In this document: piece after piece, positions 12,234 through 22,193 of the stretch
Layout of the letters: every line of letters starts with the position of its first letter
Numbering within the stretch: the stretch's first letter is position 1
NCBI GenBank assembly: GCA_047639315.1
Contig: JBLINQ010000003.1
Coordinates: 10,452 to 74,451 of the forward strand
From: Planctomycetota bacterium
Lineage (GTDB): Bacteria > Planctomycetota > GCA-002687715 > DRQF01
Direction: 5' to 3'
Length of the DNA: 64,000 nucleotides
The notes under the pieces: generated by a model
Database searches by the model: none
What the model was told of the DNA's origin: nothing
What the model saw: only the letters and a program-made list of their open reading frames with translations
Program-made: the position numbers and the translations under genes

Positions 12234-12288
12234 AGGTTTACCTAGTCCACGGCTTTCCACTTTCTCAGTTGACCGGGTAGACTTCTTC

Positions 12289-12329
12289 GACGGCACCGAG
12301 CCCCTTCTCTCGGTGCCGTCACTTTTTTT
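12289..12329 (+). terminator. rho-independent terminator
   Basis: A perfect 12-bp stem GACGGCACCGAG / CTCGGTGCCGTC with an 8-nt loop is followed by ACTTTTTTT. Confidence 0.75.
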
Positions 12330-12411
12330 CCCTCGATGAAACTTTATTCAGGCCCTACCGAATTTCAGGATCAGCCGCCGACTTCCGATATATGGCGTAG
12401 GACTCCCAAGT

Positions 12412-13593
12412 ATGGTCTTGGAGTCACGCGGTAGTTGGTTCGGGAGCAACGAGGTCATGATTCGAATTCTCAAGCGGATGCGAAACCATTCACGCCTAGG
12501 AAGTCTCAGGCGTAGAGCAGAGGTGGACCCGCTGCCACGATCCTATGTCGAGTTGTGCCGAGCACACTTGAGCCACGGTAATGTCTCCAGTGCATTAGAC
12601 GCCGCCCGGGTCGGCCTGGACAAGTTTCCACACAGTGAAGATCTGAGAGATTTGATGCGCCACTCTTGGCGCCAGACCAAATCGAAGGAGATCGACAATC
12701 TCCGCCGTGTGCTGCAAGAGACATCGGAGTCCAAACCCTTCGGCGAACTCATCGAGATCTATCTGGAATGCGAAGAATACGATGAAGCCCTCGTGGTCGC
12801 TGAAGAGTTGACCCGTCGGCGACCTGACGTTCCCGATGGTCAGGCTATGATGGCCGATATCTTGCTTCGCCGATTCTATAAAGATCATGTGGCAAGCGAC
12901 GCGAAACGCTCGATCGCGCTCTTGTTGAGAGTGCTCGAATCTGAAGAATCCAACTTTCAGGCCAACTTCTTGTTGGCTCAAATCTACCGCTACATTGGGG
13001 CGATCTCGAAGTCACTGTTCCACCTTTACCGAGCACTTGATGTCGAGCCAGAACACGAAGAAGCGCGTCGCCTCTATGACCACCTGATAAACCTTCCTCT
13101 TGAAAAAGATGGGGAAAACGAACTGCTGCGGCAGGTCGAAGAGAATGAAGCATCTCTCATCAGTGGTAACGGCGCTGCGAAGCGTAAAGACGGAACCATT
13201 TCGACAACCAGGAAGTCAGCCTTGATCCAGGATCTTGGTCGCTTCAGTCAATTGAATAGCGTGACACGCGCAGCCTTCTTGAGCGACGAATTCGTGATTA
13301 TCGCCAAGACCGGTGATTGCCGCGAACTTGGCAATGACGAAGAAGACGACCTTTGCGAGATGGCCAGGATATTCCGCTCGGCAGCAGCGATCAGCGCCAA
13401 GCGGATGGGCATCGGTGCTTTTCAAACATCGATCCTTTCGGCAGGGAAGAAGAGCCTTCAGTTCCATGCCGTCGGCCGGACCGTTTTATTAGTCGAATCA
13501 GATGATCCCACTCGAAGCGACGTGATCAAACAAGAATGCGTTGATTTTGTCGCCTCGTGCATGAGGATTTCCCGGGAGTTGACTCATGCGTGA
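12412..13593 (+). CDS. TPR-like N-terminal domain fused to a C-terminal Roadblock/LC7 (MglB-like) domain
   Basis: The helical repeat region includes EIYLECEEYDEALVVAEEL and AQIYRYIGAISKSLFHLYRAL. The C-terminus VTRAAFLSDEFVIIAKTGD ... LQFHAVGRTVLLVESDD fits the Roadblock pattern. The start is uncertain (ATG 12412 or 12457). Confidence 0.65.
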   Translation: MVLESRGSWFGSNEVMIRILKRMRNHSRLGSLRRRAEVDPLPRSYVELCRAHLSHGNVSSALDAARVGLDKFPHSEDLRDLMRHSWRQTKSKEIDNLRRVLQETSESKPFGELIEIYLECEEYDEALVVAEELTRRRPDVPDGQAMMADILLRRFYKDHVASDAKRSIALLLRVLESEESNFQANFLLAQIYRYIGAISKSLFHLYRALDVEPEHEEARRLYDHLINLPLEKDGENELLRQVEENEASLISGNGAAKRKDGTISTTRKSALIQDLGRFSQLNSVTRAAFLSDEFVIIAKTGDCRELGNDEEDDLCEMARIFRSAAAISAKRMGIGAFQTSILSAGKKSLQFHAVGRTVLLVESDDPTRSDVIKQECVDFVASCMRISRELTHA

Positions 13594-13939
13594 AGTACTT
13601 CAGAAACTCAATACGCTCGCAGGGATCAAGGGTAGCTTGGTCGTGACATCTGACGGCATTGTCGTCACCAGTGAACTCTCCAACGAACTCGACGAGGATA
13701 CGACGGCCGCACTTGTTGGCAACGTTGTGACTCAAACGATTCGCATGTTGGAAATTGGCAAATACGACGACATGGACCGCATGGTGCTAACTGCATCCCG
13801 GGGCAAGATCGTCATTGAGAACTTAGGCAACTGCCATCTCGTGGTTGTCACAAATCAATTCATCAACATTGATTTGACTTTACTTGAAATAACCAGCGCC
13901 GCTTCGAAGCTCAGAGGGCTTGGCAAATTGACAGTTTGA
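13586..13939 (+). CDS. Roadblock/LC7 domain protein (MglB/MglC-like)
   Basis: The 117-aa sequence LAGIKGSLVVTSDGIVVTSE ... MVLTASRGKIVIENLGNCHLVVVTN is a typical Roadblock domain. GGGAG lies 8 nt upstream, and there is an 8-nt overlap with the previous gene. Confidence 0.85.
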   Translation: MREVLQKLNTLAGIKGSLVVTSDGIVVTSELSNELDEDTTAALVGNVVTQTIRMLEIGKYDDMDRMVLTASRGKIVIENLGNCHLVVVTNQFINIDLTLLEITSAASKLRGLGKLTV

Positions 13940-13997
13940 CTGTCTTTCAATGACCGGCCCGCTGGCCCAGTAAATTATAGAAACGAGGACCAAGACG

Positions 13998-15281
13998 ATG
14001 GTTCAACTAAATTTGGCTCTGCGCGAGATTAACTGCAAAGTTGTTTACTTTGGGTGTGGTCTTGGCGGAAAAACGACAAACCTCGAAATCGTGCACCAAA
14101 AGGCTGCTCCGGACAGTCGGGGTGATTTGACGTCCATTGCAACCGAATCCGATCGGACTCTGTTCTTTGACTTCATGCCTCTGGACTTAGGCGAAGTCAG
14201 CGGCATGCGGATCAAGTTTCAGTTGTATACTGTTCCTGGACAGGTTTACTACAACTCGACACGAAAACTCGTGCTCCGAGGAGCTGACGGCGTCATCTTT
14301 ATTGCCGACTCTCAAGCATCCAAACTCGAAGAGAATATTGAGTCGATCGACAATCTCGAAGAGTGCTTGAAGGAACAAGGTCGGTCACTTGACGAAATGC
14401 CGCATGTCATCCAGTTTAACAAACGCGATCTTGATGACGTTCTGACGATGGACGAGTTAGAGAGACAACTCAATCGTTATGGTGCCACATGTAATGGTGC
14501 GACGGCATCAACTGGCGAAGGAGTCTTAGAGACCTTCAAGGCACTGGCAGCTATGATGCTGGACAAGATCAAGGCGATGTCGACGGAAAGTAGCGCCAAG
14601 ATTGGCAATGCAACGTCGTCCATGGCCAGTGTTAAACCTAATCCTGCCCCGACGAAAGAGGAGAGGGATTCTCAAAGGCTGCAAGGCGGAATTGCCTCGA
14701 CTCCAGAGAAGCCGCAACGGCAAGTTCAGTTAGGCAACAAACCAACCACAACCACGACGGGCCAGGTTGCTCGCCCAGCGGGGTTTGAATCGAATACGTT
14801 TTCGACACCACCTCAGACCGCTCCTGCTGACAGGCCATTGCCGGCTATGCGGCCAGCGGCTCATGCATCGGTGCCTCCGGAACCAATGGTAAAGCCCAGT
14901 CCCGTAGAGGCGCCGTCTCTTGATTCATTGCGAATGACAAGCACCTCATCCGCGCCTGCGCAGCAGGCACAAGCCATGGCGCCGGAGCCCAGCCAGAATG
15001 CTGTCTCGACGATTACGGAAGTCGAAACAAAACCAGATCCTATGGAAGTGATTTCGGAGCCCAAGGTGAGACCCTCGGTACGAGAGTCCCGGCCTTCTCC
15101 GGCGCCTCGCCGTGTCCGACCAGGTTCCACACAAGGAGCCATCGAGGTCTTGGGCGCAGGGCTCATGATTTCCTCGTCCTCGCGTCGGCGCCGTAACGGC
15201 AATGGCAAGCTCTATTGGGTGCTGGGATTCCTGCTCCTTGGTGCTTCCGCTGCAACGGCTTGGCACTTCTTCCTTAGATAA
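13998..15281 (+). CDS. mglA: MglA-type Ras-like GTPase with ~230-aa low-complexity C-terminal extension and terminal TM helix
   Basis: The first ~195 aa closely resemble Myxococcus MglA as I recall it: the P-loop GCGLGGKTT, the Arg-finger region DRTLFFDFMPL, the MglA-specific G3 YTVPGQVYY and G4 NKRD. A P/S/T/A-rich region follows, ending in RRRRNGNGKLYWVLGFLLLGASAATAWHFF. Confidence 0.9.
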   Translation: MVQLNLALREINCKVVYFGCGLGGKTTNLEIVHQKAAPDSRGDLTSIATESDRTLFFDFMPLDLGEVSGMRIKFQLYTVPGQVYYNSTRKLVLRGADGVIFIADSQASKLEENIESIDNLEECLKEQGRSLDEMPHVIQFNKRDLDDVLTMDELERQLNRYGATCNGATASTGEGVLETFKALAAMMLDKIKAMSTESSAKIGNATSSMASVKPNPAPTKEERDSQRLQGGIASTPEKPQRQVQLGNKPTTTTTGQVARPAGFESNTFSTPPQTAPADRPLPAMRPAAHASVPPEPMVKPSPVEAPSLDSLRMTSTSSAPAQQAQAMAPEPSQNAVSTITEVETKPDPMEVISEPKVRPSVRESRPSPAPRRVRPGSTQGAIEVLGAGLMISSSSRRRRNGNGKLYWVLGFLLLGASAATAWHFFLR

Positions 15282-15309
15282 GACCGCGTTCCCGAAAGGA
15301 CTGATACCG

Positions 15310-15816
15310 ATGGACGACAGCAAGAAACTCAAAGACAACCGCATGATCTTCTACGAAGATGATATTGCGGACATGGTCAAGATCCTCAAAGAATTAAACA
15401 GCATGTCTGGAGCGAAATGCTCCCTCCTGATCGACAAGGAAGGACATATGGTTGCGCGCGAAGGGGCTGTCCGCTCCTTCGACACCGACTCACTGTCAGC
15501 TCTTGTGGCTGGATCATTTGCAGCCACTCGCGAAATGGCGCGAATGGTCGGAGAAGATGAATTTACGGTGATGTTTCATCAAGGCCAGAGAGACAACCTT
15601 CAGCTGACTCTGATCGATGACCGGACAATTCTAACCGTCATTTTTGACGATCAGACCCAACTAGGAATGATCCGTCTCTATACCGCCGAAGCAGCCAAAA
15701 AACTCAGCGAATTGTTTATCAAGCAGAGCAAGAAGGGCGATCGTGCCGGTATCGAACTCGACAATGATTTCGCTACCGCAGGGAAGGCCAATCTCGACGA
15801 CGTATTTGGCGTCTGA
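15310..15816 (+). CDS. mglB: MglB (Roadblock/LC7 GTPase-activating protein of MglA)
   Basis: ATG at 15310. SLLIDKEGHMVAREG ... DSLSALVAGSFAATREMARMVGEDEFTVMFHQGQRDNLQLTLIDDRTILTVIFDDQTQLGMIRLY parallels Myxococcus MglB, including the acidic C-terminal tail ending in NLDDVFG. Confidence 0.85.
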   Translation: MDDSKKLKDNRMIFYEDDIADMVKILKELNSMSGAKCSLLIDKEGHMVAREGAVRSFDTDSLSALVAGSFAATREMARMVGEDEFTVMFHQGQRDNLQLTLIDDRTILTVIFDDQTQLGMIRLYTAEAAKKLSELFIKQSKKGDRAGIELDNDFATAGKANLDDVFGV

Positions 15817-15907
15817 TTCTACCCTTCCTGACCACACCATTTACGGCTATCTTCTAAAGAAGGGTCGCACTCTGTTTGTGCGACCAATTTTGGGAGGAGG
15901 CCTGGTT

Positions 15908-16372
15908 GTGGATCAGTCTGCGCGCATCATCGAAATCGTCGGGTCGGTTGGCAAGCTCGGTGTCCGTTTTCCGATTTTGCTCACTTTACTCCGTCTTCGG
16001 CGGGCAGATATTGAGTTTGACCAAGAATGCCGCCAACTCATCGGTCGGTCGATGGAGATTGATCCCTCCGAAATCCTCAAAGTCGCTGACTGGGTTAACT
16101 CGTTAGGCAAGCCAGGCGAGAATTCGGTCATTCATCGTTGTGTCAGCATCAGCTGCACCAGCAACGGCGCCCAGGAACTTTGGGACCTCATCGAACCGGA
16201 ATTCCAAGATCTCGAACTTATCCCCGCGGTCCAATCCGTCCTTTGTCTAGCCCGTTGTGGCATGGGACCATGCATGGCCCGTGACGAAAGTATCTATCTG
16301 GGCCAAAATGAGGATATCCACGTGGATGATCGGCCTTGGCGAGAAGCGCCGGTGGACCAAGGCCAGTCGTAA
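15908..16372 (+). CDS. hypothetical Cys-rich protein
   Basis: GTG at 15908 is preceded by the strong RBS GGGAGGAGG (15892-15900). The tracked ORF start at 15743 would overlap mglB. Cys motifs are RCVSISC and CLARCGMGPC. The family is not recognised and the start is uncertain. Confidence 0.45.
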   Translation: MDQSARIIEIVGSVGKLGVRFPILLTLLRLRRADIEFDQECRQLIGRSMEIDPSEILKVADWVNSLGKPGENSVIHRCVSISCTSNGAQELWDLIEPEFQDLELIPAVQSVLCLARCGMGPCMARDESIYLGQNEDIHVDDRPWREAPVDQGQS

Positions 16373-16411
16373 GTTCGGCACAGCGCGCTTCAAAAGGAGT
16401 GGATCGAGGGT

Positions 16412-16990
16412 ATGGACGAGTGGGATCTTCTTGAAGCGAAGGACGGTGCGGCGGAAGCGTACGAGGAAATCGTCCAACGCCATTATCAGTCGGCATTCCA
16501 ATTTGCCCGCCAAATACTCTCGGATGCCCAGCACGCCGAAGACGTCGTCCAAAAAGCATTCGTCAATATTTATGTCACGCGTGAGCGCTGCCAGCGTCGC
16601 GCCAAGTTTAAGACCTTTCTTTTCAGGGTCGTATCAAACTTGGCGATCAATGAGCTCAATCGCAAACGCCCGGTCGCTTCGGTCAGTGAAGTCATGCCTG
16701 ACAATCGGGAAGGAGGCGCGTTCTCCTTCTCTGACCCAGATTCGATCCGACCAGAAGCGGCTCTCGAGTCTGCAGAATTGGGGCAAATGATCGAGGCAGC
16801 ACTGCAACAACTACCCCCGCGCCATCGAGCAGCATTGTATTTGCGCGAATATCAGCAGATGCCTTATGCTGGGATTTCCGAGGTCTTAGACGCTTCCCTG
16901 AACGAAGTGAAGATCTGGATTCATCGTGGCCGAGGAGCCCTCCAGAAGATTCTGAAACCCTATTTAGATCGGGGCGAGAGCATTTCATGA
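16412..16990 (+). CDS. ECF (group 4) RNA polymerase sigma-70 factor
   Basis: Region 2 (AEDVVQKAFVNIY, FKTFLFRVVSNLAINE) and the region 4 HTH (MPYAGISEVLDASLNEVKIWIHRGRGAL) are present. GAGGG RBS. Confidence 0.9.
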   Translation: MDEWDLLEAKDGAAEAYEEIVQRHYQSAFQFARQILSDAQHAEDVVQKAFVNIYVTRERCQRRAKFKTFLFRVVSNLAINELNRKRPVASVSEVMPDNREGGAFSFSDPDSIRPEAALESAELGQMIEAALQQLPPRHRAALYLREYQQMPYAGISEVLDASLNEVKIWIHRGRGALQKILKPYLDRGESIS

Positions 16991-17979
16991 GCACCGACGA
17001 GAAAGACATTCAACTGGGCCTCTACTTGGATGGAGAGCTGCCGCCTGACGATCTTGCTGCCCTCGAAGGGGAGCTGGCGACTTCTCCTGACTTGAGAGAC
17101 CGACTGGAACGGCTCAAGCGTGCCAGCAAAGAACTGCAAAACTTCTACACCGATTCGCAAATGATTGACTCCCCAAACGAAACCGAGAAGGACATTGTCA
17201 TAGAACGAATCGTTCGGGAGAGCACCATGCAAGGCAGGCGGAGCGCGATAAACCGTAAAAACGGGCGGAGACCATCGTTTATTCTGATGACGACAGTCGG
17301 AATTACTGTCATTGCCGCCCTATTCTTGGGTTTCAGGACTTGGATGGGCGGCGAGCCAGAGGCGTCGAAGCTGATCGAAGGGGCTCGGAAAGAGCTCTCT
17401 TCAGGATATTTTGAAGCCGACGTCAAAATGCCGAGTCTTATGGCAGTCATCCAGGCTCTGAGCAGTGCCGCGAACCAGGATATTCTCAATGCAGCGTGTC
17501 GCTTGAGAAAAGGGCCCGACGGCATTTTCAATCTCCAGATCAAGGATAAAGATAAGGACGAGGAAGTCGCACAAATGGGATTTGACGGCGTGCAAGGTTA
17601 CTTATGGCGCAATGGCGACACCTCGGTCGAACTCCTGACTCTCGAAGAAATCAAAGCAAACCCTTACGTCAATGCAGCATTCTCAAGTTGGGAATTAGTT
17701 CGAGCCGCCCTCGAAGAAGGCATCGATCACCCTGATGCTCTGAACTTAGTTGGTAAGGTGAAAGACGCCGCTGCCGGCAGCGAGCAGCTTTGGAAGGTGC
17801 GCCTTTCTGGTCCGAGCACCAGTGGCCGCGCTAAATACTGGTTTGATGACGAAGGCCAATTGCGGCGGATCGAAGCCGCCGGGGTTCAGTTTGACGTCAA
17901 TCCGAAAGCCAAATTGACGAAGAAGGACTTTGAGATCAGCACAGTCCTTCCAGGGAAATCGATCAAGAGAGACCTATGA
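16987..17979 (+). CDS. membrane-spanning anti-sigma factor with periplasmic domain
   Basis: There is a 4-nt overlap with the sigma gene. The N-terminus LYLDGELPPDDLAALEGELATSPDLRDRLERL is typical of an anti-sigma N-terminal helix. It has one TM helix (FILMTTVGITVIAALFLGF) and a ~210-aa external domain. Confidence 0.7.
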   Translation: MSTDEKDIQLGLYLDGELPPDDLAALEGELATSPDLRDRLERLKRASKELQNFYTDSQMIDSPNETEKDIVIERIVRESTMQGRRSAINRKNGRRPSFILMTTVGITVIAALFLGFRTWMGGEPEASKLIEGARKELSSGYFEADVKMPSLMAVIQALSSAANQDILNAACRLRKGPDGIFNLQIKDKDKDEEVAQMGFDGVQGYLWRNGDTSVELLTLEEIKANPYVNAAFSSWELVRAALEEGIDHPDALNLVGKVKDAAAGSEQLWKVRLSGPSTSGRAKYWFDDEGQLRRIEAAGVQFDVNPKAKLTKKDFEISTVLPGKSIKRDL

Positions 17980-18314
17980 AGCCACAAGACATGCCCCTCG
18001 AGGTCTGGGAAGCACTGTGTCGCAAATGCGGCAAATGCTGCACCGAGAAGATCGATATCGACGATCAAATCTACATGTCGAAGAAGTATTGTCGCTTCCT
18101 CGATAAGAAAACCATGCAATGTTCGGTCTATGAAGTCAGGCATGTCGCCGAGCCCGGTTGCATGTCGGTTCCAGATGGGGTCAAGGCCGGAATCTTCCCC
18201 GGTGACTGCCCCTATATTCAGACCGTCGAAGGCTACGTTCCAGCCATTGAGAAGTGGGACGATCCAGCCATCGATGAAGCCATCCGTGAGATCTTGGGTC
18301 CTGACGCGCTCTAG
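17976..18314 (+). CDS. YkgJ-family (UPF0153) zinc/iron-chelating cysteine-cluster protein
   Basis: The CRKCGKCC cluster plus downstream Cys residues (CRF, CSVY, GDCPY) are present. There is a 4-nt overlap with the anti-sigma gene. Confidence 0.65.
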   Translation: MKPQDMPLEVWEALCRKCGKCCTEKIDIDDQIYMSKKYCRFLDKKTMQCSVYEVRHVAEPGCMSVPDGVKAGIFPGDCPYIQTVEGYVPAIEKWDDPAIDEAIREILGPDAL

Positions 18315-18343: not shown

Positions 18344-21316
18344 TCAATTCAACCTGAGCACTTGTTCTGCCTGAGACTCGGCAGTCAACAGGAGGCGTCC
18401 AGTACGACCGTCGCCGCCTTCAACTTCAAGTGTGTGGTTTCCTTGGCCCATCGTGAAGGTCAAATAGAGCGTATTCGTTCGATACTTCTTGCGCGTACCC
18501 TCGGCGATGACTACTCCCCCAGCATCCGACAATTTGTAGGAATAGGAAGTCATCGAACCATCTTTAAGATCTTTGGCGAAGCTGAATTTCATCGCCCGCC
18601 CCTGAGAGACAGGCAAGGTCACTTCGACAGTTTGCCCAGGCGTCAAAGTGACATCCTTGGTTCGCGTTACCAGTTCTTGGCCGCCCAACTTCAAGCGGTA
18701 ATGCCCAGGTGCCAGGGGCTGGGAGAGTGATGTTGGGCCAATGGCCTGGATGTTGATTGAAGATCCATCGTCTAAGCTTCGCGCATAAATAGTCGTCTTA
18801 TCCCCAGCGCCGAGGCCCGGTGTATTAATCTTAACGCGCCCGGGATCTATGAAGGCAAGGTCGCCGACGTCAAGTGTCTGCCCGTTCAGGACGACCTTTT
18901 CTTCAGATTTTTGGCTGCCATAGAGGGGTGCGCGCATGAGGAAACGATAACGGCCCGGCGAAATATCCTTGAACTCGAAACGGCCCTCGCCATCGGCGGT
19001 CTTGATGCCTGTGCCGCCGCCCGAGACAAAGGGCTGACGCATGGCTGAGATTGTTGCGCCGCTGACTGCGCGACCATCCTTGCCGACGATGCGACCGATG
19101 ATGGTTGCTACTCCGATGGCGTCATTTGGGATAACCACGCGAATGATATCTGGGCCTGATGCCACGCCAGGGATGCTGCGAAGAGTGATGCTGTTCTTAG
19201 GTGAGCTAACGGACAGTGTGTAGCCAGAAAGGCCGGCTTCTAATCCTGTAACCTTAAACCGGCCGTTCTTATCTGATTTATCAAAACCACCGATATAGCG
19301 CTCGGAGGTGAAGGCCATCACGGAGACGCTCATCCCTTCCACCGGATTGTCGCCCTCATCGAGAACAATTCCTTGGACCGAGCCTTCCGGTTTCTTCAGC
19401 TGTGTATTCCACACAGACGGTTCGGCTGCCGTCACGACAACCGATCCTTTGGCTTCGCCGCAGTCTTTCTTTTCCGCTGTGAGTGAAGCCTTGCCAAGAA
19501 CAACATTCTCAAATCGAAATTCACCCTTGGCGTTGGTGCGCATGAAGTGACTGGCTAAGTCGCCATAACGGCCCAGGTTGACCTGAACACGCTCCAAGGC
19601 CAGCCCATCAGCACCAGTGACCACACCAACCACGATGCCGCCTTTTTGGAGAATGACGCGGTGGCGTACGGTCTGCCCCTCTTTCACCTGAATCGTCTCT
19701 TTGTGAGCGGCAAAGCCGTAAGAGCGGATCACGAACTCAAGGTCCCCTGGGGCGAGGTTCTCAAGGGCGAGCCTGCCATTCTCGTCAGTCTTGTCGTCGG
19801 TTCGGCTGAATTTCATGCCCTTGTTGCCGTCAGGAAGACTGGATTGATAAAAGTCGAATTTGCCAGCAATGCAGCGCGCACCAGCGACGGGCTCGCCTTC
19901 AAAGTCGACGACTTCCAAAACCGCACGGGCCGCCGGGCCACCTAATATTAAATCGAGCTTCTTCTCGGCCCCAACGGACGGAAAAATCATGACCAACGCC
20001 GAGGGTAGGAAGCCCTTGGCCCGAGCTCCTAATACACCAATGGTGTCGTGCCCAAAGTTCGGCACCACAAAACGCCCATCAGCTCCAGTGACAGTGATCG
20101 GCTCCGTTTGGATTGGATGGCCGAAGTCGCCCGAGACAATCTCAGCCCCAACCACCGGCTTATCTTCTAAGGTCAAAACACGTCCAGTAATGCGCGAACC
20201 CATGGGGACCACCAAAGTGTGCTTGGTGGTCGTGCCTGCCGGTATCTTAAGGCGCGCCCTGCCGCCAACGCGGGTTGTGATGAGCGCGGTGCCAGCGGAA
20301 TAAGCGGGGAGAATCAGAACGCCAGTTTGATCGGTGCGAAAAGTCTCTTTCCGAAAAAACGGGTCGGTCACACTAAAAGGCAGAAAGGAAACAGGAATGT
20401 CGGCAGCTGGCTCGCCTCCCTCGCCGTAAGTCACGGTCAATTCTAAGCGCCCAACTTCCTCGCCGAATTGATTGCGGGGAATGTCGGTAACTTCCTCCTT
20501 AGCCTTAGTTTCTTCTGACGTGGCAACAGGCTTAGCCTTTTCCGCAACAGCCTTTTCATCTTCATCGACGTTCCGACGAGGCACCTTGGCTTCCGCGACT
20601 CCTTGTGATGCCTCCTGGTTAGAATCCAGGTCGAAATCGGCATTTTCGTTCGTGAACTGGTAGATCGTCACAGCCACGACAAGCACAAAACCCGCGGCGA
20701 TCGCCACTTTCACTTTTCCGGACATGACGGCAGCTCCTTTTATGAATTCTGAAATGACAGTCGATGTTGTAGTGGATTTTATGAAGACAGCAGTGGGGAC
20801 GAGAGCGAGGGCCCAGGTGTTGCGAGATCCATACTCAGAGTCGAGTTGTTGACGCAATTGCTCAAGTCCGCGCCGGGTTCGGGTGCGAACGGTCTCTTGC
20901 GGAACGCCCATCACCCGGGCAACGTCATCGTTCGCCAAACCCTCAAAAAAGACCAAGGTGATTGTTTGGCGGTAGGGCGGTTTCAGAGTCGAAACCGCTT
21001 TGACCAATCTCATTCGTACTTCACTGCGTTCGAGGATGTCTTCCGCGGATTCTGTTGCGCGCTGCGTGGCTGACCGCGATTCGATGTCCCGTCGTCGCGT
21101 TTCATCGCGCCGCTTTCTCATGCCGCGAAACCGCAAGGCATGGGATAACCACCCCAGCAAAGACGGGGTCTCAGAGGCTGCACCTTTGGTAGCAGACATC
21201 CAGGCATCTTGGCGCGCGTCATCGGCGTCATCTTGGGAACAGACTAAGTTCCTCGATAAACGCTCTAATTCGCCGTCGATCCGCAATAGTTCTTGGTGAT
21301 CAATGTCCTTGGGCAT
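18344..21316 (-). CDS. ECF sigma factor domain fused to a TM helix and a ~765-aa extracytoplasmic CarboxypepD_reg-like repeat region
   Basis: The N-terminus carries sigma region 2-like (DDADDARQDAWMSA, WLSHALRFRGMRKRRD) and region 4 (YRQTITLVFFEGLANDDVARVMGVPQETVRTRTRRGLEQL) sequences. A TM helix (VAIAAGFVLVVAVTIYQF) follows. After it come at least 5 repeats of the G-x-V-x-D-x-x-G-x-P-V-x-G-A type (GRVLTLEDKPVVGAEI, VVDFEGEPVAGARC, GIVLDEGDNPVEGMSV, GRIVGKDGRAVSGATI). Confidence 0.8.
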   Translation of the reverse strand: MPKDIDHQELLRIDGELERLSRNLVCSQDDADDARQDAWMSATKGAASETPSLLGWLSHALRFRGMRKRRDETRRRDIESRSATQRATESAEDILERSEVRMRLVKAVSTLKPPYRQTITLVFFEGLANDDVARVMGVPQETVRTRTRRGLEQLRQQLDSEYGSRNTWALALVPTAVFIKSTTTSTVISEFIKGAAVMSGKVKVAIAAGFVLVVAVTIYQFTNENADFDLDSNQEASQGVAEAKVPRRNVDEDEKAVAEKAKPVATSEETKAKEEVTDIPRNQFGEEVGRLELTVTYGEGGEPAADIPVSFLPFSVTDPFFRKETFRTDQTGVLILPAYSAGTALITTRVGGRARLKIPAGTTTKHTLVVPMGSRITGRVLTLEDKPVVGAEIVSGDFGHPIQTEPITVTGADGRFVVPNFGHDTIGVLGARAKGFLPSALVMIFPSVGAEKKLDLILGGPAARAVLEVVDFEGEPVAGARCIAGKFDFYQSSLPDGNKGMKFSRTDDKTDENGRLALENLAPGDLEFVIRSYGFAAHKETIQVKEGQTVRHRVILQKGGIVVGVVTGADGLALERVQVNLGRYGDLASHFMRTNAKGEFRFENVVLGKASLTAEKKDCGEAKGSVVVTAAEPSVWNTQLKKPEGSVQGIVLDEGDNPVEGMSVSVMAFTSERYIGGFDKSDKNGRFKVTGLEAGLSGYTLSVSSPKNSITLRSIPGVASGPDIIRVVIPNDAIGVATIIGRIVGKDGRAVSGATISAMRQPFVSGGGTGIKTADGEGRFEFKDISPGRYRFLMRAPLYGSQKSEEKVVLNGQTLDVGDLAFIDPGRVKINTPGLGAGDKTTIYARSLDDGSSINIQAIGPTSLSQPLAPGHYRLKLGGQELVTRTKDVTLTPGQTVEVTLPVSQGRAMKFSFAKDLKDGSMTSYSYKLSDAGGVVIAEGTRKKYRTNTLYLTFTMGQGNHTLEVEGGDGRTGRLLLTAESQAEQVLRLN

Positions 21317-21460
21317 TTTCCTACCTTGGCGCTCACTTTTAGTGGAGTCATGAACTGGCTCCTGTCTACTTGGTCCTTGGGATGAAGACTTCGTTCCAAA
21401 ATTCTCGACTAATTCTCAATTTCCACTGATCTACTCTTTCCTTTCCGGGAGATTGTCCCA

Positions 21461-21485
21461 GCATGCCAAGCATGCCAAGCATGCC
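21461..21485. repeat. tandem 9-bp repeat GCATGCCAA, 2.8 copies
   Basis: The sequence reads gcatgccaa gcatgccaa gcatgcc. Each unit contains the palindrome GCATGC. It lies in the divergent intergenic region between 21316 and 21606. Confidence 0.6.
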
Positions 21486-21605
21486 TTTTTCTCTGAGCAT
21501 GGTAAAACTGTGAGCTCAGAGAACTTCGCCGAGAATGGGTCGTTTCTAGCGCAACCCAAGGAAACCGCCCCTCGGCCAATGGATTACATCAAGAGGACGA
21601 AGGTC

Positions 21606-22193
21606 ATGAACGAAAATCTGAAGCGCAATCTGTTTCTCGTCAAAGAACACGTCGGCATGTTCAAAGCGGCAAACAACTATGACATTCATGATCCCGAGAC
21701 CGGTGAAATCATCCTGATGTGCCGGGAAGATAATCTTGGCTTCTTCACCAAAATGCTGCGCTTTACTGATTACAAGCGGATGACGCCCTTTGATGTCGAA
21801 GTGCGGACCCCGGAAGGGGAAACCCTCATTCGAGTTAAGCGCGGGATTTCCCTATTCCTGTCCAACGTTGAAGTTTTCGACGAGAACGATCAGTTGGTCG
21901 GCGGATTCAAGCAGAAGCTTTTCAGTATTGGCGGGGCCTTTTCCGTCCTCGACGAGAACGGCAGCCCAATTTGCGATTTGAAAGGCAAATGGACGGGGTG
22001 GGACTTCCGATTCATGGCAGGAAACAAGGAACTTGCTCATGTCTCGAAGAAATTCGCAGGCATGGCTCGAGAGTTCTTTACCAGTGCCGATAACTACGTT
22101 CTTGAAATCTCGGAAGATGTCCCAGCCGACAATAGTGCGCGCCAACTCATCATGGCGGCAGTCATGTGTATCGACATGGTATTGAAGGAGTAA
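21606..22193 (+). CDS. phospholipid scramblase / LURP-one-related (tubby-like fold) family protein
   Basis: ATG at 21606 has GAGGA/GAAGG upstream. The repeated beta-strand pattern and the C-terminal hydrophobic helix QLIMAAVMCIDMVLKE resemble the scramblase family C-terminus. The tracked ORF start at 21453 runs through the 9-bp repeat. Confidence 0.55.
   Translation: MNENLKRNLFLVKEHVGMFKAANNYDIHDPETGEIILMCREDNLGFFTKMLRFTDYKRMTPFDVEVRTPEGETLIRVKRGISLFLSNVEVFDENDQLVGGFKQKLFSIGGAFSVLDENGSPICDLKGKWTGWDFRFMAGNKELAHVSKKFAGMAREFFTSADNYVLEISEDVPADNSARQLIMAAVMCIDMVLKE

Follow-up and report, generated by a model that had tools for sequence, protein, structure and literature searches.

A predicted membrane-tethered MglA GTPase module adjoining an ECF sigma unit in one clade of Planctomycetota

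Introduction

In M. xanthus and Thermus thermophilus, the Group 1 small GTPase MglA (Wuichet and Sogaard-Andersen 2015) is a soluble, single-domain protein of ~195 aa encoded next to MglB, a Roadblock GAP with a C-terminal helix, in the classic order mglB-mglA. Further Roadblock and TPR proteins, MglC and SgmX, work with MglA in M. xanthus; TPR proteins are known as MglA-GTP pilus effectors, an example being SgmX, which uses its TPRs to bind MglA-GTP and recruits PilB to the pole (PMC11580455). In Streptomyces conservons (CvnA-D), Roadblock proteins also partner a small GTPase, as they do in the multi-Roadblock platform of Ragulator-Rag; conservon GTPases carry GTPGQ and NxFD motifs (PMC4316618).

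ORF calling and reading of the sequence identified eight co-directional plus strand genes (g1 to g8, positions 12412-18314) in the 64-kb stretch of DNA analysed here (the window). The first four genes share with the MglA/MglB polarity module the G domain with Arg53, TVPGQ and NKRD, as well as the adjacent MglB. By comparison, the gene order here is Robl-mglA-mglB, MglA is extended by a disordered linker of ~200 aa and a C-terminal TM anchor, two extra Roadblock-domain genes belong to the putative operon, and none of the RomR/RomX, Frz or glide genes are found nearby.

Results and discussion

The g1/g2 junction is an overlap of 8 nt and the g6/g7 and g7/g8 junctions are ATGA overlaps of 4 nt each, while gaps of 58, 28, 91 and 39 nt separate g2/g3, g3/g4, g4/g5 and g5/g6, respectively. 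The junctions bear out a sequence-only reading that had described eight same-strand genes with gaps of at most 91 nt and three overlaps; all of its domain calls also stand, some of them refined, after Pfam, NCBIfam, PDB and hhalign comparisons. Judged from these sequences, the arrangement is beyond chance, because the same order recurs in 6-7 independent, divergent lineages with proteins that are 25-88% identical to those of the window.

The most distinctive feature of the locus, which was absent from the earlier reading, is the membrane-anchored tail of MglA. The gene g3 (13998..15281, + strand) encodes 427 aa, of which residues 4-192 align with M. xanthus MglA structures (5ymx, 6h17) at 224 bits. 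R53, T78-V-P-G-Q82 and NKRD are invariant in aligned MglA homologues, and R53 and TVPGQ place g3 in Group 1 as defined in PMC4316618. The G domain (aa 1-203; 13998-14606) is followed by a disordered P/S/A/T-rich linker (aa 204-403; 14607-15206) and by a basic cluster and C-terminal TM helix (aa 404-426; 15207-15275). In an AF2 model, the G domain is folded, residues 204-403 have no secondary structure and residues 404-426 are helical. Linker and C-terminal TM segment are kept in 15/15 aligned homologues, and 117 of the 120 best g3 homologues have a hydrophobic 18-mer at the C-terminal end. Hydrophobicity and the modelled helix suggest that MglA is tethered to the membrane through its own C-terminal TM helix. 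Most of the long MglAs of Ignavibacteria and Zixibacteria, and one Fibrobacterota MglA, terminate instead in a GFFKRLFG-like motif, which nearly copies the E. coli MinD membrane-targeting sequence KGFLKRLFGG (PMC5471200) and probably represents a MinD-like amphipathic membrane-targeting motif that replaces the TM helix in most long MglAs of other phyla. The membrane-tethered variant is widespread, and no published description of it was found.

Three Roadblock-domain proteins surround this GTPase. The first, g1 (12412..13593, + strand; 393 aa), is a fusion of a TPR region (~aa 40-250; Pfam TPR_14 and TPR_19) with a Roadblock-like domain (~aa 271-385; 13222-13566). Pfam finds no Roadblock in these C-terminal ~115 aa and the likeness emerges only from profile-profile comparison with hhalign (g2 family, 97.4% probability, E 1.5e-11; MglB family, 91.9%); the Zixibacteria counterpart of g1 matches both TPR and Robl_LC7 in Pfam. 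The real start of g1 may be a downstream Met, since homologue alignments begin only at residue 9-27. The stand-alone Roadblock/LC7 protein g2 (13586..13939, + strand; 117 aa; Pfam Robl_LC7, E 2.7e-9) has a family profile whose top matches are the Asgard Roadblock structures 9jue, 7yh1 and 7f8m (E 4e-17 to 2e-14). The third, g4 (15310..15816, + strand; 168 aa; Robl_LC7, E 5.6e-15), is MglB, the Roadblock GAP, complete with its C-terminal helix, and its alignment with the PDB MglB chain 6h5b_B (E 2.4e-28) spans residues 11-166 and takes in the C-terminal segment; its score against the NCBIfam MglB model (97 bits) falls short of the 200-bit equivalog cutoff. A longer g4 ORF from 15202 was rejected, as 80 nt of it would lie within g3 and homologues lend it no support. 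The arrangement of three Roadblock-domain proteins around one MglA, pointed out in the earlier reading, recurs across Planctomycetota loci; the design is conserved and not peculiar to this genome.

Genes g5 to g8 encode an ECF sigma/anti-sigma pair between two Fe-S/Cys-cluster proteins. The first of these, g5 (15908..16372, + strand; 154 aa; GTG start), originally called a Cys-rich protein, can be refined to a thioredoxin-like [2Fe-2S] ferredoxin type (PF01257, 26.5 bits, cutoff 24.8; NuoE/HoxE-like NCBIfam matches), whose C-x4-C...C-x3-C set of four ligand cysteines does not vary across 5 orthologues. The ECF sigma factor g6 (16412..16990, + strand; 192 aa; Sigma70_r2 and r4_2; TIGR02937, 96 bits, cutoff 42.9) has orthologues of 49-60% identity in the same slot in lineages L005, L009, L089, L152, L153 and L154. 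The membrane anti-sigma g7 (16987..17979, + strand; 330 aa), with weak zf-HC2 and anti-sigma HMM matches, consists of anti-sigma helices near the N-terminus (~aa 8-60), a domain in which the HxxxCxxC zinc motif is missing, followed by a single TM segment (~aa 97-116; 17275-17334) and an orphan periplasmic domain; a search of 1.84 billion representatives with g7 yielded only 14 relatives at E<=1e-10. The last gene, g8 (17976..18314, + strand; 112 aa), encodes a YcgN/YkgJ-type CxxCxxCC cysteine-cluster protein (PF03692, 24.8 bits, cutoff 23; YcgN NCBIfam models, 69 bits, under their cutoffs); its CxxCGKCC and further cysteines are invariant and its orthologues are 54-66% identical. Five other lineages have a g7-type gene; the ATGA coupling of g7 to g8, already noted from the window, is kept in four of them (L006, L152, L153 and L154, of which L006 has lost the sigma factor), while L005 has a 7-nt gap.

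Just upstream of the cluster and syntenic with it lies a conserved small-RNA-like element (12235..12328, + strand), in which a 5' stem-loop, its CU-rich loop invariant, precedes an intrinsic terminator.

A promoter-like bipartite motif, TTCAGG-N17-GATATA, is located upstream of g1 (12364..12392, + strand). The motif occurs once in the window, is conserved as TTCAG-N16/17-CCGATA at fixed spacing in 7 of 9 lineages, and persists in L006, where the sigma gene is missing. Across six lineages, neither an ECF-type motif nor any other common promoter motif was found to precede g5 or g6. The mglB-g5 gap contains a stem-loop (15850..15897, + strand; MFE -33.3 kcal/mol, z = -3.95; stability matched by 0/200 shuffles) with an 8-bp core stem at 15863-15885 and a predicted outer helix that pairs with the g5 Shine-Dalgarno region. 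It is followed by AATTTTGGG, which falls short of a proper U-tract, while the same genomes use canonical hairpin-plus-U7 terminators, for example on the small-RNA-like element. A stable stem-loop is present 3' of mglB in 5 of 8 lineages (the window, L005, L009, L152 and L153; z -2.7 to -3.0 in the relatives) and absent from the gap in L154, L006 and L007. Of the two separators that the sequence-only reading had envisaged between mglB and the sigma genes, a terminator or an independent promoter, the comparison revealed a stem-loop of incomplete terminator form and no conserved promoter; together with a linkage kept in close relatives only, the outcome is mixed. Since a conserved internal promoter and a U-tract are both missing, co-transcription of g1 to g8 is plausible, although the stem-loop could be a terminator that leaves g1-g4 and g5-g8 on separate transcripts.

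The two halves of the cluster differ in distribution. The order TPR-Robl, Robl, long MglA, MglB was found in most Planctomycetota loci examined, with a g1 orthologue upstream of Robl-MglA-MglB and usually a PATAN-TPR-propeller gene preceding the module. In Ignavibacteria and Zixibacteria loci, parts of the module, with extra genes interposed, adjoin type IV pilus genes; in the Zixibacteria locus L048, the TPR-Robl/Robl/MglA/MglB module is followed by PilB, PilT, PilC and PilS genes, a pattern repeated in six other loci of these two phyla. Neither a pilus nor a PATAN gene was found in the window, and the pilus link stems from other phyla. By comparison, g5 to g8 follow mglB in the window lineage (L001/L002), L005, L009, L152, L153, L154 and, partially, L089, and are absent next to the MglA module from every other locus examined, which suggests that they are restricted to one planctomycete clade (7 lineages plus 2 with the sigma lost). 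In L006, the anti-sigma domain was deleted along with the sigma gene, and in L007 sigma and g7 are absent; both retain g1-g4, g5 and g8. No insertion was found within g1-g8 in any lineage of the clade, unlike the flank 3' of g8, which has been remodelled repeatedly. Linkage of mgl and sigma genes is therefore conserved within one clade and was not found in other loci. Moreover, synteny extends across this clade to a PPIase and a 628-aa gene upstream and to PolyA_pol and GT2-TPR genes downstream; the adjacency of the two halves may therefore be plain inheritance and functionally meaningless.

From what the sequences show of gene identity, of the membrane-anchor architecture and of conservation, we favor, with somewhat better than even confidence, a composite locus in which a membrane-tethered GTPase switch (Unit A, g1-g4) is joined to a clade-specific sigma unit (Unit B, g5-g8). 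Unit A would be an ancient switch in which a Group 1 MglA with its own arginine finger is held at the cytoplasmic membrane by the TM helix beyond the linker and its GTP hydrolysis is stimulated by MglB. The Roadblock domains of g2 and g1 probably heterodimerise, giving MglA a second platform built from a Roadblock dimer, and the TPR arm of g1 would recruit client proteins, with the likely output that type IV pili or other envelope machines are positioned or activated. Unit B, with its sigma/anti-sigma pair between two cytoplasmic Fe-S/Cys-cluster proteins, would have been gained by one planctomycete clade directly 3' of mglB and is probably expressed, at least partly, through read-through from the g1 promoter. 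The core switch does not depend on the sigma unit, and coupling would take the form of co-expression or an accessory function rather than an obligatory GTPase-to-sigma relay; a functional link between the two remains speculative.

A stronger coupling, in which all eight genes form one pathway and the nucleotide state of MglA controls the anti-sigma to release sigma, or the reverse, seems improbable. Such a relay, with the Roadblock/TPR platform reading the state of MglA and the two Fe-S/Cys proteins as redox or metal inputs, would account for a gene order that stays unbroken in 6-7 lineages at g1 identities as low as 32% while the flank after g8 changes, for the missing promoters before g5 and g6, and for the predicted inner-membrane location of both MglA and the anti-sigma, whose lack of a zinc/redox motif could leave sensing to other proteins. 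On the other hand, the MglA modules of ~20 further Planctomycetota loci, and those of all loci from other phyla, have no sigma beside them, L006 and L007 keep the module after sigma loss, and clade-wide synteny could explain the adjacency. We met no published case in which an ECF sigma is gated by a small GTPase, no dedicated search having been made, and the word 'GTPase' appears nowhere in the ECF classification paper. The earlier proposal that GTPase state is wired to transcription, which had adjacency in one clade as its sole basis, is not upheld.

It is likewise doubtful that the halves are unrelated neighbours, with g5-g8 an ordinary autoregulated envelope/redox stress ECF operon that has its own promoter and is adjacent by descent only. 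The stem-loop between mglB and g5, the long-range synteny and the intact Unit A in the two sigma-loss lineages would fit such an operon, as would the abundance of ECF sigmas in planctomycete genomes (the window alone holds three sigma-domain genes); however, the regions upstream of g5 and g6 share no promoter motif, the stem-loops lack U-tracts, and no g4-g5 insertion was found even though insertions are frequent elsewhere in the neighbourhood. Far less probable still is a conservon-type (Cvn) or Ragulator/Rag-type system, a likeness raised in the earlier reading and contradicted, as membership, by motifs and gene content. Several Roadblock proteins do surround one GTPase, and the g2 profile matches CvnB5 (E 2.6e-8) and Roadblocks of the LC7 type better than it matches MglB (E 0.03), with weak similarity to LAMTOR2 (E ~0.006). 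Yet conservon membership is ruled out by the Group 1 rather than Group 2 motifs of g3 (R53, TVPGQ and NKRD as G4) and by the absence from the cluster of a CvnA histidine kinase and a CvnC/DUF742-like gene, and Rag membership by the absence of a C-terminal Roadblock domain on the GTPase and a sub-threshold Gtr1_RagA match (16.5 bits, 22-bit cutoff).

Comparison with known systems

The MglA module resembles conservons and Ragulator-Rag in its multi-Roadblock design, while their defining components and motifs are missing. The likeness to MglC and SgmX is conceptual; here TPR and Roadblock domains are fused in one protein, g1, whose gene is part of the putative operon, and g2 resembles LC7, Asgard and CvnB-type Roadblocks, with no chain named MglC among its profile's structure matches at E<=1. 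As in canonical ECF/class I transmembrane anti-sigma pairs, g6 has sigma2 and sigma4 domains only and the product of the overlapping downstream gene combines an N-terminal domain of anti-sigma helices with a single TM segment and an extracytoplasmic domain. Unlike those pairs, this one is flanked by a ferredoxin-like and a YcgN-type protein, has an orphan periplasmic domain, and lacks both a zinc motif and a recognisable promoter for autoregulation. The plan of G domain, flexible variable linker and C-terminal membrane anchor is common to eukaryotic Ras/Rab/Rho, in which the anchor is a lipid (prenyl group) rather than a TM or amphipathic protein helix; this resemblance, like that to MinD attachment in the sister phyla, is one of analogy, not homology. 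A TM anchor is unable to cycle on and off the membrane, and regulation of a GTPase held in this way must therefore lie in lateral localisation or partner binding.

An MglA protein with a predicted membrane anchor

The cluster at 12412-18314 consists of eight genes on the + strand, i.e., g1 (TPR-Roadblock protein, 12412-13593), g2 (Roadblock protein, 13586-13939), g3 (MglA, 13998-15281), g4 (MglB, 15310-15816), g5 (ferredoxin-type protein, 15908-16372, with a GTG start), g6 (ECF sigma factor, 16412-16990), g7 (putative anti-sigma factor, 16987-17979) and g8 (YcgN/YkgJ-type protein, 17976-18314). Read from the sequence, g1 and g2 overlap by 8 nt and are followed by gaps of 58 nt (g2/g3), 28 nt (g3/g4), 91 nt (g4/g5) and 39 nt (g5/g6), while g6/g7 and g7/g8 each share an ATGA overlap. 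The eight closely spaced and partly overlapping same-strand genes described in the sequence-only reading of this region were thus borne out by the open reading frames and their junctions, and the same genes had been called on a metagenomic contig of identical sequence. GC content is even throughout the cluster region, so there is no sign of recent transfer.

The G domain of g3 scored 224 bits against M. xanthus MglA. DRTLFFDF (R53, T54) and YTVPGQ (T78-Q82) are invariant in all 15 g3 homologues (15/15), and the G4 motif is NKRD. Group 1 of the MglA family has been defined by an arginine beside the G2 threonine and by TVPGQ as the G3 motif (Wuichet and Sogaard-Andersen 2015, PMC4316618); R53, the TVPGQ motif and the adjacent MglB gene, which starts 28 nt 3' of g3, place g3 in Group 1 as judged from sequence. 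At 427 aa, g3 is outside the length of about 195 aa expected for a single-domain soluble MglA and is a variant architecture within this group. A Pro-, Ser-, Ala- and Thr-rich linker of about 200 residues, in which homologues align poorly, leads to a basic RRRRNGNGK stretch and then to LYWVLGFLLLGASAATAWHFFL at residues 404-426, the protein ending in 22 uncharged hydrophobic residues. In the AF2 model, the G domain (1-203) is folded, residues 204-403 are without secondary structure and residues 404-426 form a helix (pLDDT 73-89). A hydrophobic C-terminal segment was found in 117 of the 120 best database homologues; these are 244-439 aa long, and wherever a source is named, as it is for a few, the label is Planctomycetota. 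Its layout is that of a tail-anchored protein whose C-terminal helix is predicted to insert into the membrane and whose GTPase part would lie in the cytoplasm; the sequence-only reading, which named g3 simply as MglA, had overlooked this tail.

No description of a membrane-tethered MglA was found in the literature on MglA with planctomycetes or membrane anchoring, and Planctomycetes are absent from the Group 1 phyla named in the 2015 survey (PMC4316618). The MglA and MglB families are known; the architecture, the operon order and the extra partners represent a variant for which no description was found.

Distribution of the MglA module and a second C-terminal device

Among the loci compared (80 loci among the GTDB matches listed, plus contigs encoding homologues), two MglA architectures split cleanly. 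Acidobacteriota, Myxococcota and Gemmatimonadota carry the classic mglB-mglA pair with an MglA of 194 aa; in Planctomycetota the order is TPR-Roadblock, Roadblock, long MglA and MglB. In other Planctomycetota, a gene encoding a PATAN-TPR-PQQ/beta-propeller protein of about 1050-1380 aa, as judged by Pfam content, usually lies directly 5' of the TPR-Roadblock gene (L008:3184-6396; cluster c3 in L011, L013, L014, L016, L019, L022, L023, L025, L026 and L033). No PATAN gene was found at that position in the clade studied here or anywhere in the 64-kb window. In Ignavibacteria and Zixibacteria the order is PATAN (DUF4388), a small gene, TPR-Roadblock, an unknown 320-aa gene, Roadblock, long MglA and MglB. 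Genes for PilB, PilT, PilC and a PilS-like kinase directly follow MglB in one Zixibacteria locus (L048:5115-16647, chromosome CP070674.1), and the same cluster pattern was found in six further Zixibacteria and Ignavibacteria loci (L030, L034, L041, L044, L045 and L054); the extended MglA module is there contiguous with type IV pilus motor genes. No pilus genes were found within the 64-kb window.

In Ignavibacteria and Zixibacteria, most of the long MglA proteins have no TM helix and end in (K/R)GFFKRLFG(I/L)K (C-termini of this type in L029-L031, L034, L041, L044, L045, L048, L050, L054 and L060). One Fibrobacterota MglA (L052) has a similar GFFKRLFG-type tail, the three Fibrobacter loci have a long MglA and MglB but lack both the tail and a Roadblock gene upstream, and a Brocadiia homologue (L026) ends in the basic amphipathic KPLFKKFKKFL. 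The GFFKRLFG tail nearly equals the membrane-targeting sequence of E. coli MinD, KGFLKRLFGG (PMC5471200), and this MinD-like amphipathic tail is predicted to be a second means of tethering MglA to the membrane. The presence of two different C-terminal devices behind a variable linker, in orthologous GTPases encoded in homologous operons, argues strongly that the extension of the long MglA proteins serves membrane tethering.

MglB and two further Roadblock proteins

The product of g4 matched Robl_LC7 (E 5.6e-15) and PDB chain 6h5b_B (E 2.4e-28) over residues 11-166, including the C-terminal helix. The NCBIfam MglB equivalog scored 97 bits, under its cutoff of 200 bits; the predicted Roadblock fold, the C-terminal helix and the neighbouring mglA identify g4 as an MglB. 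The 117-aa product of g2 matched Roadblock models in Pfam (E 2.7e-9) and Roadblock proteins in the PDB (E 4e-17). The top matches of its profile were Asgard Roadblock structures and CvnB5, the match to MglB was weak and no chain named MglC was among the profile matches to the PDB.

For g1, Pfam reports TPRs alone. A profile built from the last ~130 residues of 20 orthologues matched the g2 family with 97.4% probability (hhalign, E 1.5e-11) and the MglB family with 91.9%, and the Zixibacteria counterpart of g1 has Pfam matches to both TPR and Robl_LC7. The description of g1 as a TPR-Roadblock fusion was therefore right, and profile similarity assigns its C-terminal domain and g2 alike to the Roadblock/LC7 superfamily.

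The ECF sigma unit is limited to one clade

Downstream of mglB, g5 matched PF01257 with 26.5 bits (gathering score 24.8), and its C-x4-C...C-x3-C cysteines are invariant in five orthologues. The Cys-rich protein of the sequence-only reading retains its conserved cysteines and can be refined to a thioredoxin-like [2Fe-2S] ferredoxin type with predicted cluster binding. The g6 product, of about 190 aa, carries PF04542 and PF08281 only and matched TIGR02937 with 96 bits (cutoff 42.9); its assignment as an ECF sigma factor holds on these sigma2 and sigma4 domains, and all NCBIfam equivalog matches were under their cutoffs. The g7 product has N-terminal helices, one TM segment and then a periplasmic domain. 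Its N-terminus, compared with the helical domain of class I anti-sigma factors, gave weak HMM matches (zf-HC2, E 0.0075; NF052375, 25.7 bits vs 100), and its AF2 model has a mean pLDDT of 42, with the N-terminal helices at 61-83. A zinc-binding anti-sigma factor (ZAS) is ruled out by the absence of any His or Cys in residues 1-60, and hence of the HxxxCxxC zinc motif. In an exhaustive HMMER search of 1.84 billion representative proteins, the periplasmic domain had only about 14 relatives and is thus an orphan, and other anti-sigma proteins aligned to residues 3-126 only. The membership of g8 in the YcgN/YkgJ CxxCxxCC family was upheld by PF03692 (24.8 bits vs 23) and the conserved CRKCGKCC motif; YcgN equivalog models scored under their cutoffs.

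The full g1-g8 order recurs in L005, L009, L152, L153 and L154, at 25% to 79% identity to the window overall (g1 32-61%, g2 48-79%, sigma 49-60%, g7 25-41%, g8 60-65%). A short contig, L089, carries g5-g6-g7 only, and the sequence of L003 (63% MglA identity) ends just past mglB. Among the matches listed, g5-g8 were found neither in about 20 other Planctomycetota loci nor in loci of other phyla. In a metagenome scan with a sigma alignment, nearly all matches were unrelated ECF sigma factors of at most 34% identity, which never adjoin MglA, g5, g7 or g8; the one true orthologue, L089, lies beside g5 and g7. Of the mglA-mglB linkage to an ECF sigma gene proposed from the sequence, what stands is its conservation in one clade (L005, L009 and L152-L154, with L089 in part); it is absent from the other loci compared.

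Even in this clade the unit is not uniform. In L006:10293-11392 the ECF sigma gene has been lost along with the N-terminal anti-sigma domain of g7, and what is left of g7, its TM segment and periplasmic portion, forms a 254-aa ORF that retains its 4-nt overlap with the YcgN gene; in L007 an unrelated 406-aa gene lies between g5 and g8. Because g5-g8 are limited to one clade, absent from the other loci compared and missing in part in L006 and L007, the sigma unit is an add-on of this clade, ancestral there and lost at least twice, and the MglA module plainly functions without it. The remnant in L006 suggests a sigma-independent role of the g7-g8 pair, and the conservation of the 4-nt overlap even where the sigma gene is gone suggests that the two proteins work together.

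The clade shares its wider gene order too: on the upstream side a PPIase gene and one encoding 628 aa, on the downstream side genes for PolyA_pol, GT2-TPR and Metallophos proteins. Conserved adjacency alone is therefore weak evidence of function. On the other hand, no insertions were found within g1-g8 in the loci compared, and insertions are common right after g8, including genes for a 990-aa protein and a scramblase in the window, Kelch, Toluene_X and Metallophos genes in L153 and L154, and a DUF1570 gene in L007. The gene for the 990-aa protein, at 18344-21316 (-), converges on g8 across a 29-nt gap; its product combines sigma-70 region 4 at the N-terminus with a TM segment and numerous CarboxypepD_reg/PEGA-type repeats. 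No relative has this gene at that position, and it therefore represents a lineage-specific insertion. The scramblase-family (PF03803) gene at 21453-22193 (+), between the genes for the 990-aa protein and PolyA_pol, is at this position in no other locus where the region was recovered.

Transcription signals and a small-RNA-like element

A canonical terminator (12-bp stem and T7) is located upstream of the cluster at 12289-12320. It forms the 3' part of an element of about 95 nt at 12235-12328 (+), about 85 nt upstream of g1, that begins with a 5' stem-loop (GTTTACCT/AGGTAGAC) with the CU-rich loop CCACTTTCTCAG. The loop 14-mer is the same, base for base, in nine retrieved loci from eight lineages, and compensatory changes occur in 14 of 29 base pairs, a covariation reached by none of 500 shuffles (0/500). 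A covariance model matched at this position in this clade only, with a weak match in L007. No Rfam family was found, with sub-threshold matches only to CcsR1 (19 bits vs 65) and STnc380, and no complementary target of the loop was found within the window. This element, directly upstream of the motif described next, looks like a small RNA gene syntenic with the cluster.

The motif TTCAGG-N17-GATATA at 12364-12392 (+), which lies between the terminator and g1 and occurs once in the window, is probably the promoter of g1 and the mgl module. In 7 of 9 lineages g1 is preceded, at a constant spacing, by TTCAG-N16/17-CCGATA, possibly a hint of a promoter consensus in planctomycetes. The possibility that the g6 sigma factor drives this promoter was rejected, as the motif is not ECF-like and is retained in L006, which lacks the sigma gene; its persistence there indicates a g1 promoter independent of g6.

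Signals that would separate g5-g8 from this promoter, a terminator or an independent promoter, were named in the sequence-only reading as counting against its proposal and were sought between mglB and the sigma genes. A stable stem-loop is present in the mglB-g5 gap at 15850-15897 (+) (z = -3.95); four further lineages have a counterpart (z -2.7 to -3.0) and three have none, but these stem-loops are without a proper U-tract, and U-tract terminators are used elsewhere in the same genomes. Across six lineages, neither an ECF-type promoter (AAC-N14-19-CGT) nor a common 6-8-mer was found upstream of g5 or g6. A structure is thus present between mglB and the sigma genes, and a shared promoter upstream of g5 or g6 was not found; read-through from the predicted g1 promoter, with some attenuation, seems a little more likely than two separate transcripts. 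In the window, the Shine-Dalgarno sequence of g5, GGGAGGAGG, is predicted to be paired in the outer helix of the stem-loop, and translation of g5 may therefore be under structural control.

A possible role of the module and of the sigma unit

MglA and MglB are a model of bacterial cell polarity, and MglA is a widely cited relative of the eukaryotic small GTPases. The first four genes encode a Group 1 MglA with all catalytic residues and a conserved, predicted C-terminal membrane anchor, its cognate MglB and two more Roadblock domains, one of them fused to TPRs. By analogy with Thermus and Myxococcus, MglB would be the GAP for MglA. Usual GTPase platforms are Roadblock and longin dimers (PMC10933270), and g2 together with the Roadblock domain of g1 could form a second dimeric platform. 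The TPR arm might recruit clients, much as the TPR effector SgmX takes PilB to the cell pole (PMC11580455). As pil genes adjoin the module in other phyla, its output could be the positioning of envelope machines.

For the sigma unit, g6 and g7 would form a standard sigma/anti-sigma switch in which the orphan periplasmic domain senses some envelope signal, and the two Fe-S/Cys proteins g5 and g8 might supply redox or metal input from the cytoplasm. As MglA and the anti-sigma factor are both predicted inner-membrane proteins, they might interact directly, adjacency being the one line of support. The fuller proposal, that in this clade a permanently membrane-tethered MglA on a two-Roadblock/TPR platform directly gates the transmembrane anti-sigma factor, with Fe-S/Cys redox inputs, is one we regard as quite unlikely; if true, this gating would be the first small-GTPase-to-ECF-sigma relay, the system would set a prokaryotic precedent for the eukaryotic combination of G domain, variable tail and membrane anchor, and the clade-specific sigma unit, if real, would be a new kind of small-GTPase output. 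The sigma wiring is interesting and of low probability, and the valuable part is the membrane-tethered MglA subfamily. This large and apparently undescribed subfamily comprises most Planctomycetota loci compared, with Ignavibacteria, Zixibacteria and some Fibrobacterota loci; its members would carry their own membrane anchor, a TM or MinD-like helix, behind a long variable linker, and the operon adds two Roadblock proteins and a TPR arm. A self-anchored GTPase would alter the picture of a 'minimal' MglA system and is suggested here as a candidate polarity determinant for Planctomycetota.

Comparison with known systems

The likeness to the Streptomyces conservon and to Ragulator-Rag put forward in the sequence-only reading was rejected as membership by motifs and gene content. 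While g3 has TVPGQ, NKRD and R53, the Group 2 GTPases of conservons (CvnA-D) have GTPGQ and NxFD and no G2 arginine, and no Pfam match to a CvnA histidine kinase or to CvnC (DUF742) was found in g1-g8 or in the scanned flanking genes. A Ragulator-Rag system is recognized by Rag GTPases with a C-terminal Roadblock domain that form heterodimers and by a lipidated LAMTOR1-like anchor; g3 matched Gtr1_RagA with 16.5 bits (cutoff 22 bits), and its C-terminal region is disordered rather than a Roadblock domain. Both systems are functional analogies to the module only. As for the sigma unit, the g6-g7 design is ordinary when compared to canonical ECF/anti-sigma pairs and it is the neighbouring genes that are unusual; nothing relevant was found in the literature on ECF sigma factors with YkgJ/CxxCxxCC proteins.

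Unlike Myxococcus MglA, which cycles from the cytosol to the pole, a TM-anchored g3 would be unable to cycle in this way, so that regulation would act on its lateral distribution or on partner binding. According to a 2024 structural paper, prokaryotic (Asgard) Rab-like GTPases are without membrane-anchoring C-terminal extensions, and such extensions of small GTPases were argued to have arisen only during eukaryogenesis (PMC10933270). With a G domain, a variable tail and a predicted membrane anchor, the MglA subfamily described here is a prokaryotic analogue of the eukaryotic small-GTPase design.
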